Virus record (IMG/VR): IMGVR_UViG_2548876794_000003
Location: 32,001-96,000 of that record
From: a virus
Lineage: Duplodnaviria; Caudoviricetes
Reading direction: 5' to 3' (one strand)
Length of the DNA stretch: 64,000 bases
Part shown: positions 5,508 through 41,286 of the stretch, in pieces
Layout: each line of letters opens with the position of its first letter
Position numbering within the stretch: the stretch's first letter is position 1
Made by a program: the position numbers and the translations under genes
Notes under the pieces: generated by a model
Seen by the model: only the letters and a program-made list of their open reading frames with translations
Told to the model about the DNA's origin: nothing
Database searches by the model: none

Positions 5508-6485
5508 TTATTCTACCCCTGCTTTCTCTTCCGCTTCGATACGGTTTAATAATTCATTTGCAATACCAGCGTATAGCGTATGGATTGCTTTATCATGAGT
5601 GTCTGTTTCATGATGTGAAATACCAACACGAGAGTAACGTTTTAATCGTTCGCGGTAAGGAACAACAGAGTTAAATAAATTGTGTTCTCCAAATGTTTCA
5701 GCAGCATCTTGTAGGATGCGTTCATCAACTTTACTGTCTCGTTTTAGAATTACAGGCAAGATACCAATAATATCTGCTTCGGCATCATATTCGTCAATAA
5801 GCTCTTGTAAGTAGCCAACGAAGTCTTTCGCACCATCTAATGACCAGTCTTGTGTTTGGAGAACAACAAGAAGATAGTTCGATGCATAAAGCGCTGAATC
5901 GGTAATGATAGAAAGTGTTGGTGGAACATCAATGAATACAAAATCATATGCTCCGCTTACTCTATCTAATAAATCTTTTAAGTGAGTAACGCGATCAGTG
6001 TAATCTGGGAAAACACCTTCTAAATATCGAGAATAGTAACGGAAATCACTATAGCTTGGAATAATATCTAAGTTGTCAATAATTGGTGTGATGATACTTT
6101 GTAGATCTTGGTTTTGAATGGCCGTCATTAACGTGCCATCGTATGTAATGCTATCTACAGGTTCTTCAACCGATTCCTTAACTTGATTAATTTCTTTAAG
6201 AGATAGTTTTACACGAGATGCGTCGAAGTCATCTTCGCCTTCATGTTTAGCACGTTCAGCAGCAATCTTCGCATCTAAAACTTGGTCAAGTTTATCTTGA
6301 ATCATAAGCTCATGTTCATGTAAGTGACGAGTTTTCATAAGAAGTGAAGTTGCATTTGCTTGCGGATCCTGGTCAACAATTAAAACTCGTTTGCCCATTT
6401 TCGCTAATTCGTAAGCAATCATAACGGTGTTGGTAGTCTTGCCAACGCCACCTTTGATGTTACCGAATGTGATAGTAGTAGTCAT
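5508..6485 (-). CDS. parA: ParA/Soj-family partition ATPase
   Basis: Deviant Walker A KGGVGKTT, IVDQDPQANAT, YDFVFIDVPP. Confidence 0.95.
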   Translation of the reverse strand: MTTTITFGNIKGGVGKTTNTVMIAYELAKMGKRVLIVDQDPQANATSLLMKTRHLHEHELMIQDKLDQVLDAKIAAERAKHEGEDDFDASRVKLSLKEINQVKESVEEPVDSITYDGTLMTAIQNQDLQSIITPIIDNLDIIPSYSDFRYYSRYLEGVFPDYTDRVTHLKDLLDRVSGAYDFVFIDVPPTLSIITDSALYASNYLLVVLQTQDWSLDGAKDFVGYLQELIDEYDAEADIIGILPVILKRDSKVDERILQDAAETFGEHNLFNSVVPYRERLKRYSRVGISHHETDTHDKAIHTLYAGIANELLNRIEAEEKAGVE

Positions 6486-6526
6486 TTTAAAAGCTCCTTT
6501 GAGTGTGTATTGTATTCAGTTTTCAA

Positions 6527-6613
6527 TGTATGCATGTATGCAAGTATGCGATGTTTTTTGTTTCATCGTATGTGAGCATACATATATAATAATATACTCG
6601 CATACTTACTTGC
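6527..6613. promoter_or_regulatory. GCATAC octamer repeats upstream of parA (putative autoregulatory parS)
   Basis: TGTATGCA-TGTATGCA-AGTATGCG tandem plus inverted GTATGTGAGCATAC; same motif as the 16.9-18.2 kb array. Confidence 0.6.
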
Positions 6614-6709
6614 AATAACTACTTAGTAAATAAATGTATAATCGTACTGAAAAGTAGTAAAAACGTTGAAAATCAGAATAACAGATACAACTCTATAGTC
6701 TATATATGA

Positions 6710-7461
6710 CTAACCAATCGTTAGTAACTCATAGGGTTCTTCCGGATAATCTTCTCCCCTACTAGCATGCAAGTCGTTTATTTGCATCGTATTCGGTAGA
6801 TAATTCTGTTTGAAAATATCGACAACCTGCCGCACAAAAGGCTCATACTCTTTATAGGCGTCATGAGCTATCAATACATCTTTATGACAATTACCTTCAA
6901 TTACTTGGAACAAATCGGTGCAAAGAGAGGTTTTAATAATTACCAATGGATAGATGATTCTATCATGAGAGAACCTTAAGTCGAACATAGAAATAGAATT
7001 TTTTTAACTTGAATATAGATAGAACCATATCCTCTAAAAACGTAGCATGAATGGATGCCTGGTTCGACTTCTTTAGAAGAAACAGAGAGCGTTGATATGT
7101 AATCACCTCGACCTTTGATACGATGAAGGTGCTCGTCCAATGAAGTATAAGTAACGACTTCATTGTCCATATCATCATAATAGGAAATGGCAATTGTCAT
7201 GTCGACAGAGCTAATCTTAGGATTGTTTGAATTAGCGTATATCATATTGCTACTCTTCATGTTCTCATTGTATGGCCATTTTATATCTGCAGCGAGCAAT
7301 GCATCTCTTTCTTTTGCTACATCAAGCTGCCGAAGGTGTTTCATTAATGGAAGGAATTCCTCAACTACATGCATACCAAAATTGCACAATGCTATATCTT
7401 GATTCGATTTTGAAGTAAACGGGTTTGGAAGAATTGGTGCATTTGTTGGTGCATTTCCCAC
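6710..7461 (-). CDS. Hypothetical protein (ORFs 6976-7461 and 6710-6988 joined across a frameshift at T7 6999-7005)
   Basis: One extra A gives ...IQVKKNSISMFDLRF... continuous. Confidence 0.6.
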
Positions 7462-35166: not shown

Positions 35167-36153
35167 ATGGTATTCTCAAACGGTTTCGCAGTAAGCGGAG
35201 CTCTAGCTGGTGGCGCAGTTGGTGGTACGACAGGTATCATCGCCGCCGCCAATAGTGACAACCCAGCAGGCGTCATGGGCTCTGCCGGTGTCGGTTCTGC
35301 AATTGGGGCAACAGTCGGTGGTATCGGAGCAGGTGTATTACCAAACTTCGGTGAAGCTGGCAAGAAAGTCGGTACTGGTTTAGCAAAAGGTTTATTCGTT
35401 CAACCAGCACATGCTTATATGAATAGCTTCAAAACGGTCTCTGGCAACGGGAGTTTGCGAACAGCTGTCGGCAGTTTAGGCATTGGCAGTGGGATGGCAG
35501 GTGCCGGTATTGGTATGTACTTTGGAAACAAATTCACCGGTGGAGATGGTTCTGGTGCCTTGACTGGTGCCGCGATTGGTGGAGCTGCTGGTTTAGCCGC
35601 GCCATTAGCACTTGGAGCAACGTCTGCAGCAGTTGGTTTTGGAGGAATGGCCTTACTAAAAAACTCTGGGCGTATTATGTCTGGAGTTGGTTCAGTAGGG
35701 ATAGGTACAGCGCTAGGTTCAGCCGCAACAGCTGGGCATCTTCTCGCACCAAAAACGTTGAAAGGTACATCTTTCGATCCGCGTACAGGCAACGCGCTTG
35801 CTCGTGGTGTTAAACGCGCGGGCTACTTTGCGACAAATCCAGTACAAAAATATGCAAAGTTCGCAACAGGCGTTGCTGGCAAGATGTTTAAGTATGAGAA
35901 TGCTTCTGCTAAATTGAACAGCAAAGGTAAGATGGTTCATACACCTGGTCGAATGCGCTTGTCCAAATTAGGATTAGGTGTCGGCGCAGTAGGGATGTTA
36001 ATTGCATCTGGTACATCAGCAACAAAAGATTATCTAAATCGTAGTGGTTCTCCAAGTGGGGCATCGACTCCTACACCAAAACCATACAGCTATGTAGATA
36101 ATGGCGGTGCGACAGGTGACTTAGTGTTTGCTATGCACAACAATCGAAATTAA
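35167..36153 (+). CDS. Glycine-zipper hydrophobic protein (putative ejection/membrane protein)
   Basis: Multiple GxxxG segments, 328 aa. Confidence 0.65.
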   Translation: MVFSNGFAVSGALAGGAVGGTTGIIAAANSDNPAGVMGSAGVGSAIGATVGGIGAGVLPNFGEAGKKVGTGLAKGLFVQPAHAYMNSFKTVSGNGSLRTAVGSLGIGSGMAGAGIGMYFGNKFTGGDGSGALTGAAIGGAAGLAAPLALGATSAAVGFGGMALLKNSGRIMSGVGSVGIGTALGSAATAGHLLAPKTLKGTSFDPRTGNALARGVKRAGYFATNPVQKYAKFATGVAGKMFKYENASAKLNSKGKMVHTPGRMRLSKLGLGVGAVGMLIASGTSATKDYLNRSGSPSGASTPTPKPYSYVDNGGATGDLVFAMHNNRN

Positions 36154-36168
36154 CAAGGAGGAGATACG

Positions 36169-36609
36169 ATGCCGGCATTAGGTTCTATCCTTCGATCCGC
36201 TTCTGGGTTCAACAAATTCAAGAACTCAAATAAAGGTCGAATGGTCAGCATAGGTCTTAGTGGATTAGGTTTTGTCCATGAATACAATGAAAATCGCGCA
36301 GAAGGCGATGGTGTTGCAAAGTCTGCCGTAAAAGGTGCGGGTAATGCATTCATTATGGATGCTGTCGGGATGCCTGTGTACTTTGGTGCTATGGCGTTAG
36401 GTGGAGCTGTAAAAGGTGGCGGCGCAATCGCTTCAAGTGTTGCACGAACATCAAGAGAGATGGCGCGTAGCAATCAAGCATTTGCGACGTCAACGTTCGT
36501 TGATACTCAACAAGCCTACACGATGCGACAAGCAGGTATGCAACAAGTGCAATCATCCGAAATGAATACAAAACGGGCATTACTCGGTAATGAAGCGAGG
36601 TATATGTAG
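36169..36609 (+). CDS. Hypothetical protein, paralog A
   Basis: C-terminal NQAF..F.D.QQAYTMRQAGM..LGNEARYM. Confidence 0.75.
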   Translation: MPALGSILRSASGFNKFKNSNKGRMVSIGLSGLGFVHEYNENRAEGDGVAKSAVKGAGNAFIMDAVGMPVYFGAMALGGAVKGGGAIASSVARTSREMARSNQAFATSTFVDTQQAYTMRQAGMQQVQSSEMNTKRALLGNEARYM

Positions 36610-37020
36610 ATGAATATTTCGCCCTCTGTATTACGTTCGTTCAAAAAGACAGGAGCACTAGTAACTGCTGGCGCAACGATATTGGATTATGGCATCAATA
36701 AAGCACAAGGTAAGTCGACAATGGAAGCGGCAGGAAGCGCAGCGGGAACAGCTGTAATGTCTCATTTTTTACCATGGTACGCTACGTTTGCTTTGCAAGC
36801 ACATCCTTTATTAAAAGGGGCAGTAGGAGAAAGTGTAAGAGAAGTAGACATGAAGTCACGCGACTTTGCGCGAAACAATCAAGCATTTTCTAACTCTTAC
36901 TTCTCTGATAACTCTCAAACGTTTACGATGCGACAAGCAGGTATGGCCTCAATTGAGCGAGCGAAATATAATCAGCAGAATGCCATGTTAGGTAGCGAAG
37001 CAAAATATATGAACTATTAA
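36610..37020 (+). CDS. Hypothetical protein, paralog B
   Basis: C-terminal NQAF..F.D.SQTFTMRQAGM..LGSEAKYM. Confidence 0.75.
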   Translation: MNISPSVLRSFKKTGALVTAGATILDYGINKAQGKSTMEAAGSAAGTAVMSHFLPWYATFALQAHPLLKGAVGESVREVDMKSRDFARNNQAFSNSYFSDNSQTFTMRQAGMASIERAKYNQQNAMLGSEAKYMNY

Positions 37021-38004: not shown

Positions 38005-41000
38005 ATGCCGAAGAATAAATTATCCGCTATCGAAGTAGAACGATTTAAAGAGATTATGGCAAACCCTGTAATGTGGGCTCGTGCATTCATTCGCACCTTC
38101 AATCCGAAGACGAAAAAGCATGAACCTTGGGTAGCCCGCTGGTATCAAGCAGAAATCTTACTAGATGAATCGGTCAAAAAGGTTGCTAGGTGTGGACGCC
38201 GTACGGGTAAACATTTGCTCTTCATTTGTGAATTGCTGGAAGGTCCAACTCCCTTGGAAGAATCAGCAGCCATGTCCTATAGAAATAGGAAGGGTTCAGA
38301 GACTACGAGCGCAAATGTTTTAATACAACACGAGAGAGGTTATGCCACATGAAATTTGTAGCAGAACGAAAAATCGAAAATCGCGTACTATCAGTAAACA
38401 TTAAATTTGATAGCTACGGTGAAGGCGACTTAACAGATGAACAGGAAAAAGCGTTGGTTAGCGCATTCGGCAATCCTGTCATCTCAGTAGGTGGCGAGTT
38501 TAAAGCGAAGTTTGACGAGAAAGGTCAATTCGTAGAAGATCCAGAAGCAATCGGTGAAGAAGTATCGTTCATTATCGTTAATAAGACGGCAGAGCTTGGC
38601 GAGAATTTCGTAGCGTCATATTCTATTGGGTTAGATAAAGCAGCTGCATACATTAATGAAAAATCTCTATTAAAAGAGGATTACTTACAAGCCGTAGCTC
38701 GCTGTGAGCTTTTCGAAAAAACTATCCAAGATCGCGCGGTTGCCGCAGCTGATAAGTTACAAGCAAAATCAACTGCATTCACAACTGGCTACCCACGCGA
38801 TTTCTTTGCATAAGGAGGACGGATCATGCAACTAAAATACACAAGTAGTATTCGTAAACGCATTATCTGCTTAAATGTAGAGACGACAAACTTCACTACA
38901 AACGAGCGAATCGCCTTAGAAGAATTAGGCGAGCCAGTCATTGAAATGGAGAAAATGTTCAAAGGTAAATATCCTGTGCAATTTTCTAAAACAATTCGTA
39001 CTGGCTTGAAGTTAGCTATCCGCTTCGATGGTCGTGAAAATATTGAAGAAGCATCGCAAGCCGCAAATGAATTTGTAGAGGAATTAGGCGAACTAATCCG
39101 TACAAAAATGAGCGACCTTATGGAAACATACGATGATGTCAATTTTATTTTTGACCGTAAGAATGGATTAACTACCCTATAGATTGTATTAAAAAAGATA
39201 TAGTCCGCCCCTGTTTTTAACAGGGTAGCGAAAACAGAGACCATGTGCGTAAATGGTCTTTACAAGGGGTCCACCCAACCAAACCAACGTATTCTGTATG
39301 TTACGCCATACGAGACGCAAGTACGTTTAATCTTTATGCGTCTAAACGAAATGATTGACGGTAGCCCGCTTCTACAAGAGCAAGTTGCTCGTCGTATCAA
39401 AAACCCATTCATGATTGAATTTAAAAATGGCTCTGCTATCATGGGCTTCACGACAGGTGCTTCGTCTGGTACAGGCGGTGCTTCTATTCGTGGCCAACGT
39501 GCCGATTATATTCACATGGATGAAGTGGATTAACCATATAGTCCACTATAAATAGGGTGAATTGCTGGAAGGTTTGGTGTAAAATCTGCATCAGAATAAT
39601 CAGCAGCCATGCTGTTAGGAGGTTTTATTATGGGAGAACTTATTTTCCTAAATGAACATAATGAAGTAAAAGAAGCGATTGAACACGACAAACAGGACAT
39701 GTTGAATATGCTAGACACAATCCAAAAAGTAGTAGAGGATGGCGAAGCTGTCTCTTTATACATTGGATGTGCGCTAACAGACAATACAAGTATAAGCTGG
39801 TCATCTGGACGTTTTAATTATAACCAACGCGCCAGACTAATTAGTGAATTACATGATGAACAATGTGCTCATGCTTTAGATTTACTTGATGACTAACGGA
39901 GGGTTCAGAGACTATTAATAGCGCCCTACATAGATGATATAGTCCGAAGTGAAAACGTATATGACCGAAGCTGACTTTGATACCGTAACAACAATTGCCG
40001 CTGAACGTAGCGACATCGGTATCTTCTTGTCATCTACTCCAACAGGTGCTCGCTCTAAGTTCTATCAAGCGTGTACCGATAAATCAATGGGCTTCACTGA
40101 ACATTTCCATCCATCAAGCCATAACCCGAACTGGGATGCCACGATGGAAGCTCAATTCAGAGCTCAACTTACGCCGTCTGGTTACACGCATGAAATCGAA
40201 GCAGATTTCGGCGCGCAAGATACCGGTGTATTCAACAAAGATAAGGTCGATAAAGCAATGTCATTCCAAAACTATTACTACAATCCGCTATCTGTTATCC
40301 AGTTGGATCGCGTGAAGCGTGAAGCGGAGAATGGGACCCCGACACCAATTAACAGAGTGTACGATGGTATACCTGTGCCACGAAATACATTCCGTACGAT
40401 GGGCGTCGACTGGGATAAATACCAAGCATCAAGTAGTATATTGATAATGGACTATGACATTGAATCGAAAAAATTCATTGTTGTTAAACGTATTGAAGTA
40501 CCGAAAGCGGAGTATTCATACGATGCAGCAGTTAATTTGATTGTTGAACTAAACGAAATATATAATCCGACATGGATCTACTGTGACCGCGGATCAGGCG
40601 AGTATCAAATAGAACGTCTACATATTATTGGGGAAGAACGTCCAGAGACGGGCCTTAAACATAAAGTGAAGGGCTGGCAGTTTGCTAACAAAATTGACGT
40701 AATGGACCCAGTTACAAAAGAGATGGTTAAAGAGCCAATGAAACCATTCATGGTTAACCAATTGATTATGGCCTTCGAGCGTGAGCAATTGATTCTTTCT
40801 CCATTCGATGAAATCTTACATAAGCAATTAATCGACTATGAAGTAGTGCGCCAGCAACAAAATGGTGCGCCAATTTTCACTTCTGAAAATGAACACTTTG
40901 TCGATACATTAGGTTTGGCTTTCCTTGCATTCGTACTCGAATTTACGGAGCTTACCAATACAATCAAAAAAGTTCGATATGAAATGGCGATGTCATCTAT

Positions 41001-41217
41001 ACAAAAACGCCCTGGTCAAAAACGTGTAGAAACATCGTTACGCCAAGCAGCCGCAAGTGAAACAAGCTTTAGTCAACAAATTGAAGCGGCACACCATGAC
41101 GGCGACCTACCAGGGGATCGTCCTACATGGACGCAAGTACGAAATTCTTCTCGTCGACGCTCTAACGGACGCGGTTGGGGGAGTCGTACAGGCGGCGCAA
41201 CAAGAACTGTTTGGTAA
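38005..41217 (+). CDS. terL: Terminase large subunit, spliced: 38005-38208 + 39231-39530 + 39958-41217 (587 aa)
   Basis: Splicing restores Walker A CGRRTG|KTETM and Walker B IHMDEVD|YM in frame; also WYQ Q-motif, SSTP motif III, nuclease MGVDW and EHFVDTL. Confidence 0.92.
38349..38813 (+). CDS. Intron-encoded hypothetical protein 1 (no homing-endonuclease motif)
   Basis: 154 aa, GAGAGG RBS, inside the P8 loop. Confidence 0.8.
   Translation: MKFVAERKIENRVLSVNIKFDSYGEGDLTDEQEKALVSAFGNPVISVGGEFKAKFDEKGQFVEDPEAIGEEVSFIIVNKTAELGENFVASYSIGLDKAAAYINEKSLLKEDYLQAVARCELFEKTIQDRAVAAADKLQAKSTAFTTGYPRDFFA
38826..39182 (+). CDS. Intron-encoded hypothetical protein 2, paralog of protein 1
   Basis: 118 aa, AAGGAGG RBS, inside the P8 loop. 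Confidence 0.8.
   Translation: MQLKYTSSIRKRIICLNVETTNFTTNERIALEELGEPVIEMEKMFKGKYPVQFSKTIRTGLKLAIRFDGRENIEEASQAANEFVEELGELIRTKMSDLMETYDDVNFIFDRKNGLTTL
39531..39957 (+). ncRNA. Group I intron 2 in terL (427 nt), ORF in the P6 loop
   Basis: P1 GTGGAT|..GTCCAC with U.G at the splice site, P10 CATATA/TATATG, P3 TAGGGTG/CGCCCTA, P/Q/R/S nearly identical to intron 1, terminal G 39957. Confidence 0.92.
39630..39896 (+). CDS. Intron-encoded 88-aa acidic hypothetical protein
   Basis: AGGAGG RBS at 39617-39622, overlapping the P6a stem CTGTTAG/CTAACGG. Confidence 0.75.
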   Translation: MGELIFLNEHNEVKEAIEHDKQDMLNMLDTIQKVVEDGEAVSLYIGCALTDNTSISWSSGRFNYNQRARLISELHDEQCAHALDLLDD

Positions 41218-41286
41218 AAATATAGCCTTTTTATCCTCTTAGCTGTAAAATGCTAAGGGGATTTTTCAATAAGGAGGACTTTTCAC

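Follow-up and report, generated by a model that had tools for sequence, protein, structure and literature searches.

The 64,000-nt stretch of DNA analysed here (the window) spans bases 32001-96000 of the 178,960-bp (~179 kb) genome of a caudoviricete phage, IMG/VR record IMGVR_UViG_2548876794_000003, and carries a gene for the large terminase subunit, terL, that is divided into three pieces by two insertions, intron 1 and intron 2 (Table 1). Within intron 1 lie two open reading frames (ORFs), iORF1 and iORF2, and within intron 2 a third, iORF3. An original prediction, made from the letters of the window, had placed the junctions at 38208/39231 and 39530/39958, and both these and the positions of the three ORFs proved right to the base. 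The explanation favoured here, to which as a whole a probability of about 0.75 is given, is that the insertions are two sibling group I introns, that the P8 loop of intron 1 houses an ordinary conserved gene pair encoding neither homing endonucleases nor maturases, and that this cargo locks the intron in place.

Each piece of terL consists of whole codons, as seen both in the ORF listing and by direct reading; the last base is T in each 5' exon and G in each intron. Joining the exons in silico yields a 587-aa TerL without a stop in which Walker A and Walker B are intact, junction 1 lying inside Walker A (GRRTG/KT, the slash marking the junction) and junction 2 directly after Walker B (HMDEVD/Y), with no codon lost or gained at either. 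In alignment the joined product is colinear from end to end with the uninterrupted TerL of Moorella phage MTATph1 and of phage 0305phi8-36, and it is colinear also with the TerL of Bacillus phage WH1. Two large terminase families are matched, phrog_675 by exon 2 and phrog_2 by exon 3, and the closest TerLs by tblastn are that of MTATph1 (46%) and those of the Bacillus jumbo phages WH1, Edson, KLEB27-3 and 0305phi8-36. The same phage has been assembled from several metagenomes, with near-identical copies in many samples; megablast of the region against 50,697 phage records returned no near-identical record. Relative to a divergent relative, L004 (Logan SRR17422362), in which TerL is 80% identical and synonymous sites are saturated, the terL exons are the most conserved sequence of the region, with a ratio of non-synonymous to synonymous substitution rates (dN/dS) of 0.05, and the flanking phage genes show 34-63% amino-acid identity. 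Between exon 1 and the end of terL no convincing internal promoter or terminator stands out.

Table 1. Features of the interrupted terL locus, in positions of the window (IGS, internal guide sequence; pI, isoelectric point).
Feature	Position	Strand	Remarks
terL exon 1	38005..38208	+	68 codons; ends ...GRRTG in Walker A, last base T; homologous to the TerL N-termini of relatives
Predicted group I intron 1	38209..39230	+	1022 nt; omega-G 39230
Intron 1 IGS	38214-38220	+	pairs with exon end (P1)
Intron 1 P3	38223-38230 with 38310-38317	+	encloses P4-P6 core
Intron 1 P7 5'	in GGTTCAGAGACTA box, 38293-38305	+	
Intron 1 P8	38318-38328 with 39184-39194	+	11-bp stem closing the cassette
iORF1	38349..38813	+	154 aa, pI 4.7, no His; longer paralog, P8 loop of intron 1
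iORF2	38826..39182	+	118 aa, pI 5.1; shorter paralog, P8 loop of intron 1
Intron 1 P7' box GATATAGTCC	39197-39206	+	
Intron 1 P9 hairpin	39207-39230	+	
terL exon 2	39231..39530	+	100 codons, KTETM... to Walker B ...HMDEVD; last base T
Predicted group I intron 2	39531..39957	+	427 nt; IGS 39539-39547; omega-G 39957; P8 vestigial
Intron 2 P6	39612-39618 with 39893-39899	+	7-bp stem closing iORF3
iORF3	39630..39896	+	88 aa (95 aa from upstream ATG), pI 4.4; orphan, P6 loop of intron 2
terL exon 3	39958..41217	+	419 codons and stop; remaining ATPase domain and nuclease domain
Terminator-like hairpin and T-run	41233..41262	+	after terL

The core boxes GAATTGCTGGAAGG, AATCAGCAGCCATG, GGTTCAGAGACTA and GATATAGTCC are identical in the two introns, and no mismatch-free copies of the four occur elsewhere in the genome. 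Pairing of the guide with the exon end is provided in intron 1 by GGGU with GCUC plus an extension and in intron 2 by AGUGGAUU with AGUCCACU; both cores are small, intron 1 being without P2. Given that the long stem of intron 1 follows P3' and precedes the GATATAGTCC box of P7', it is assigned as P8, and given that the closing stem of intron 2 lies between P4' and J6/7, it is assigned as P6, which places the ORFs in the very loops that had been proposed for them. The Rfam group I model RF00028 gives a local match to intron 1 from P3 to P3' (38223-38317; 34.3 bits, E 1.9e-6, gathering score 50) and a weak match to the 3' part. ORF-less introns with the same core pass the gathering score, at 56.3 bits in L004 (6550-6739) and 54.9 bits in L066, and introns with the same core boxes in L016 and L022 reach up to 101 bits. 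The P4-P5-P4' box is present in 47 IMG/VR contigs, in which most such introns are ORF-less. In L016 (3637-5845, IMG/VR), seven matches to RF00028 above the gathering score (51.7-101.5 bits) lie within about 2.2 kb. At gathering thresholds, no RNA family in Rfam, including the twister and hammerhead ribozymes, was found in window positions 1-64000.

The intron 1 sequences compared come from eight relatives with the full intron and, for the 3' portion, from two short contigs; the insertion is at the identical codon position in all of them. Consensus folding of six intron 1 5' halves with RNAalifold recovered P1, P3, P4, P5 and P6, with both sides changed in 15 of the 34 pairs, and duplex folding found P1, P3, P8 and P9, in differing sequences, in all seven loci tested. 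Across the eight full loci the cassette is enclosed by a P8 stem of 8-16 bp, fully complementary throughout and with a sequence of its own in each lineage. L075 carries a synonymous ACG to ACA change at the end of the exon, and its guide sequence has changed to match. Comparison of intron 2 with its counterpart in L004 shows compensated changes in P3 and P6 and a P5 that is wholly different yet still paired. Both are regarded as real group I introns, for which self-splicing activity is predicted from these sequences.

Each of the three ORFs has its own Shine-Dalgarno-like site 8-9 nt upstream (GAGAGAGG for iORF1, AGGAGG for iORF2 and iORF3), in agreement with the separate ribosome-binding sites originally proposed, and all three products are acidic (pI 4.4-5.1). 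The stop of iORF2 ends 1 nt before the 3' strand of P8 and the TAA stop of iORF3 lies inside the 3' strand of P6, an arrangement in which terminating ribosomes and ribozyme folding would therefore compete locally. None of the ORFs appears degraded, and, because they are intact and conserved in the divergent relative L004, they are most probably not chance frames. Against L004, iORF1 is 65% identical with a dN/dS of 0.15 and iORF2 is 60% identical with a dN/dS of 0.21, the synonymous divergence (dS) being saturated at about 1.7-2.0; as judged from these ratios, both genes are under purifying selection. The two are paralogs over their full length, with an insertion in iORF1 (hhalign probability 90.7%, E 1.2e-6), and an exhaustive profile search placed the relatives of iORF2 in 56 clusters at 50% identity. 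No paralogs of the intron ORFs were found elsewhere in the genome, and tblastn of each ORF against the 50,697 phage records gave nothing useful. The frame of exon 1 (window 38005-38352) continues for 47 codons into intron 1, its stop forming an ATGA overlap with the start of iORF1; this read-through was discarded as a feature since it is not conserved, the read-through in L004 stopping earlier, 62 nt before the ORF.

Alignments of two sequences of iORF1 and of iORF2 found no loci when used as seeds for IMG/VR searches; the loci of relatives were retrieved with a seven-sequence alignment as seed. In about ten lineages (the window, L004, L062, L064, L065/L077, L066-L070, L071-L074, L075, L078 and L081) the pair lies inside intron 1. 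In L060, L063/L076 and L080 it is free-standing, in the same order, directly upstream of a terL that is uninterrupted in L063/L076 and L080 and intein-bearing in L060, and in L061 iORF2 alone stands upstream of terL. A terminator-like hairpin lies between cargo and terL in L061 and L063, and intron remnants were searched for on the flanks of the upstream-type pair and none was found. The free-standing homologs that it had been suggested might accompany intron-less terL genes do, then, exist for both intron 1 ORFs. A distant member of the iORF2 family occurs in L079 between the halves of a split-intein dnaE, far from any terL. Profile searches of the whole records of the outgroups WH1, MTATph1 and 0305phi8-36 found no homolog of the pair. 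The genes upstream of terL in WH1 (gp117, gp118) and in 0305phi8-36 (gp115, gp116) were considered as counterparts of the pair and rejected, the profile comparison being negative. In trees of TerL and iORF2 the cargo tracks TerL, the two arrangements being interspersed, and the trees require at least three switches or, alternatively, exchanges of the cassette by way of its homologous flanks (a 308-aa upstream gene and exons 2-3). On this distribution the pair behaves as ordinary clade-specific phage genes that relatives place differently with respect to the opening 68 codons of terL, and intron 1, whose P8-loop genes have free-standing orthologs, can be classed as a cargo-bearing group I intron. 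The original view of both introns as containers of cargo is upheld in this way for intron 1, by the free-standing homologs and the purifying selection, and is not demonstrated for intron 2, given that iORF3 is an orphan.

The absence of LAGLIDADG, GIY-YIG, HNH and His-Cys motifs from the ORFs, as first noted by eye, is borne out by searches of Pfam, PHROG, NCBIfam and PDB sequences, in which neither the three ORFs nor the 50-member and 9-member family alignments had a match; the best Pfam score of iORF3, to PF09356, is below threshold (18.9 bits, cutoff 22.9). As a positive control, the ORFs of related introns were recognised by that Pfam search as LAGLIDADG_1/2/3 and Endonuclease_7, and where IMG/VR introns of the same core type carry ORFs, these are LAGLIDADG_2 or Endonuclease_7. 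Divergent nucleases of the PD-(D/E)xK or EDxHD type, named at the outset as an outcome that would overturn the idea, find no support either, in that no family profile or catalytic motif is present in any of the three. Each family of the pair has a single invariant acidic residue (for iORF2, across 50 members) and the pair in the window is without histidine. An AlphaFold model of iORF2 built with 50 relatives is confident (predicted local distance difference test score (pLDDT) 94.6, predicted template modelling score 0.82) and has a beta-beta-alpha-beta-beta-beta topology, the first two strands forming a hairpin, followed by one 35-residue C-terminal helix. It has no Foldseek match in PDB or BFVD at E <= 0.001, and an exhaustive VIA-align comparison peaked at a Z of 5.6, for mitoribosomal proteins, nucleases being absent from the top of the ranking. 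Its best match in the ESM Atlas is an unnamed 158-aa viral cluster (template modelling score 0.72). CapZ, Rpb11, type III secretion chaperones and mitoribosomal proteins were each considered as fold candidates for iORF2 and set aside, the resemblance being weak and none convincing. The model of iORF1, made from a two-sequence alignment, is unusable (pLDDT 36.8) and iORF3 likewise gave no usable model; Atlas feature searches with iORF3 and iORF1 returned only unnamed clusters or nothing.

The position of the pair, or of iORF2 alone in L061, directly 5' of terL in L060, L061, L063/L076 and L080 was considered with regard to the small terminase subunit, TerS. No match was found to a TerS family in Pfam or PHROGs, nor was a TerS chain among the fold matches of iORF2, and a small-terminase role is suggested by position only. 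The location of the pair in the head and packaging module, its paralogy and its long C-terminal helices suggest a heteromeric assembly or packaging accessory. Irrespective of its role, the pair provides a new protein family (the 56 clusters above) with a confident model and a positional link to the packaging module.

iORF3 has no free-standing homolog, being seen only in the lineage of the window and in one relative, and it is related neither to the iORF1/iORF2 pair nor to the LAGLIDADG ORF found at the same terL site in L071. Against L004 it is 35% identical and its dN/dS is not computable owing to saturation; a frame of 87-88 codons is open in both the window and L004, and the start block, a strong ribosome-binding site and the stop position are kept. 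It is proposed, from these two sequences, that intron 2 carries a young, lineage-restricted gene for an 88-aa acidic protein in its P6 loop. It is possible instead that iORF3 is a decaying remnant or a chance frame, as might be expected of a sequence with an indel-rich C-terminal half and without family or fold information other than the sub-threshold PF09356 score. However, this is rather unlikely: the frame has stayed open in both lineages though blastn aligns no DNA across most of it, the conserved elements include the AGGAGG/AAGGAG site, the N-terminal MGE..FLNEH block, the KQxML and VEDGE blocks and the stop in the 3' strand of P6, and there is no similarity to the LAGLIDADG ORF of L071.

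The distribution of the pair raises the possibility that iORF1 and iORF2 are a new, perhaps heterodimeric, mobility factor, a homing nuclease or nickase that targets terL. The pair is always beside or inside terL except in L079, its arrangement switches at least three times on the trees, its fold is unassigned, and since the outgroups are without it, arrival together with the intron is possible. This is nevertheless improbable: both proteins are acidic and without histidine, with the one invariant acidic residue across 50 members; neither has a nuclease profile or fold match, while the LAGLIDADG and Endonuclease_7 controls were detected; and one family member lies far from any terL. Furthermore, the pair has a dN/dS of 0.15-0.21, occurs in all phages of the ingroup and tracks TerL, whereas homing endonuclease genes are patchy and decaying. 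A second possibility is that either the pair or iORF3 serves its own intron as a splicing cofactor, a maturase for minimal ribozyme cores, which would suit cores in which P2 is missing (intron 1) or P8 vestigial (intron 2) and would recall the phage introns that splice in vivo and not in vitro (PMC11878797). Retention of the pair beside an uninterrupted terL (L063/L076, L080) and in a setting away from terL (L079) makes this highly unlikely, as do the acidity of the proteins, unfavourable for RNA binding, and the presence in the same gene of introns that share this core and have no ORF, such as L004 intron 3 and that of L066. The alternative offered originally, of a new class of splicing or mobility factor, is disfavoured by the same retention of the pair where terL has no intron. 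That the insertions are unspliced, so that terL is broken or expressed as separate polypeptides, is scarcely credible, given that the breaks fall inside Walker A and after Walker B in pieces that join without codon loss or gain, that the ribozyme helices are kept by compensatory change, that the exons, at 80% amino-acid identity and a dN/dS of 0.05, are the most conserved sequence of the region, and that near-identical copies recur in many samples.

The explanation of an ordinary gene pair housed in a locked intron has itself to be set against several findings that weigh the other way. The introns of the window score below the Rfam gathering score, probably because the ORFs in their loops (0.85 kb and 0.27 kb) break the model. 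Occurrence either inside an intron or beside the target gene is also typical of homing endonuclease families. The interspersed arrangements indicate that intron 1 has not been strictly immobile, and, in the absence of a family or fold match, the pair could yet be a new kind of DNA-acting protein. For its part, iORF3 is known from two lineages, between which it is 35% identical and saturated for substitutions.

Under the explanation of a housed gene pair, TerL would be made only after both introns have been spliced out. Intron 1 would be an old, vertically kept element whose P8 loop houses paralogous conserved phage genes, the products of which probably act together in the head or packaging module. 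The pair would share one transcript with terL, ending only at the terminator that follows terL, and, because each of its genes has its own ribosome-binding site, could be translated from the precursor, from the excised intron RNA, or from both. Precise removal of intron 1 would take with it a cargo that selection maintains, and selection on the cargo may be why intron 1 is present in every lineage with the pair inside whilst the remaining terL introns, endonuclease-bearing or ORF-less, are sporadic and come and go. The suggestion that cargo could make an intron undeletable is compatible with this pattern. Among these other introns of relatives, LAGLIDADG ORFs are carried by those at the Walker B site (L071), at exon 3 residue 154 (L064, L065, L072) and at residue 215 (L066). 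A possible route between the two arrangements, for which known processes would suffice, is that a loaded intron was copied into an intron-less terL, by homing or maybe by co-conversion from LAGLIDADG introns lying a few hundred bases off, and that the redundant upstream copy was then lost; the reverse change would occur by allelic replacement. More tentatively, and with some doubt, a phage group I intron may be a long-lived container, possibly a vehicle, for ordinary genes, the whole unit having switched several times between positions inside and upstream of terL. If this were so, self-splicing introns would move and rewire non-selfish phage genes, and the expression of the pair would come under terL transcription and splicing.

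The ORFs of phage group I introns have been taken as homing endonucleases almost by default; they are described as HNH, GIY-YIG, LAGLIDADG or VSR-like endonucleases, or are absent (PMC11878797, PMC3984707). The introns of phage terL, DNA polymerase and nrd genes (T4 td/nrdB/sunY, Twort, SPO1, Bastillevirinae; PMC11878797, PMC3984707) resemble those of the window in their group I core, in their position at the most conserved catalytic codons of an essential gene of DNA metabolism, in ORFs looped out from P6 or P8 and in the occurrence of several introns in one gene. In contrast to them, the ORFs here have no nuclease signature and the pair has free-standing orthologs and is clade-wide. A search of the literature and reviews found no phage intron with conserved non-mobility genes, the precedents being mitochondrial only: a fungal intron of the mitochondrial large-subunit rRNA gene with rps3, and the ND5 intron of hexacorals, mushroom corals among them, with up to 15 mitochondrial genes in P8 (PMC3073962). 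These organellar ND5 and rps3 introns (PMC3073962) share with intron 1 the presence of non-mobility, non-splicing genes in a peripheral loop (P8 for ND5 and here), inherited vertically with the intron, such that intron loss is gene loss. They differ in that mitochondrial genomes are under weak size constraint whereas the present genome is of a lytic-type phage with tight packing, and in that closely related phages carry the cargo either within the intron or outside it, a transition thus recent enough for study. Intron 1 is a phage counterpart of the coral ND5 case, with the same loop and with living relatives in both states. The sister phages with the same genes outside the intron form a natural before/after series for cargo entry and allow one to test if an intron becomes irreversible once it holds cargo, and the locus offers a way to ask how translation of a 0.85-kb insert coexists with the ribozyme folding that an essential late gene needs. 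The case also bears on annotation, in that gene callers split terL into three "hypothetical" fragments and would miss the nested genes.

Free-standing and intron-encoded homing endonucleases that act by collaborative or trans homing (F-CphI/psbA, mobE/I-TevIII; PMC3984707, PMC2790892) offer a further parallel, one family being found inside an intron or beside the interrupted gene, and neighbouring LAGLIDADG introns could likewise carry intron 1 by co-conversion. Unlike F-CphI/psbA and mobE/I-TevIII, the pair has no nuclease motif, profile or fold, is acidic and under purifying selection, and is present throughout the clade. The intein in the Walker A motif of TerL (WH1 gp116; L060) is inserted at the same point (GRRxGK/) of the homologous TerL, which makes this site a hot spot for self-splicing elements; it differs from intron 1 in being a protein-splicing element with a LAGLIDADG domain and without cargo genes.

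At the loci of L001 (1312-4236; Bacillus phage WH1) and L060 (6390-9305), the LAGLIDADG-domain intein occupies the exact Walker A position (GRRxGK/C...HN/, the slashes marking its ends). In L071 the Walker B site (5732-6984) is occupied by a different group I intron of 1253 nt, with a core scoring 53.6 bits at Rfam and a 341-aa LAGLIDADG ORF near its 5' end. The terL of L004 (4158-7849) has four group I introns, two of them the cargo introns of the window and the other two in exon 3; the third is ORF-less, 171 nt long and of the same core, at DWD/KYQ (6560-6730), and the fourth is 333 nt long and of another type, at GAG/EYQ (6914-7246). In the window the sites of both the third and the fourth are empty. 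In L079 (1846-8357) the gene for a DnaE-type polymerase has an apparent split intein: its first ORF ends in a Cys-initiated N-intein-like piece and a 90-aa ORF of the split intein ends ...VHN/S. Five genes lie between the halves, for a metallophosphatase, the distant iORF2-family member, two unknowns and an HU-like protein. Upstream of terL in the window, positions 35167-37020 encode Gly-rich proteins, of which the 146-aa and 136-aa products are paralogs with a common C-terminal ...NQAF..S.F.D....TMRQAGM... block, the 146-aa protein being related to gp115 of 0305phi8-36 and to the C-terminus of WH1 gp117.

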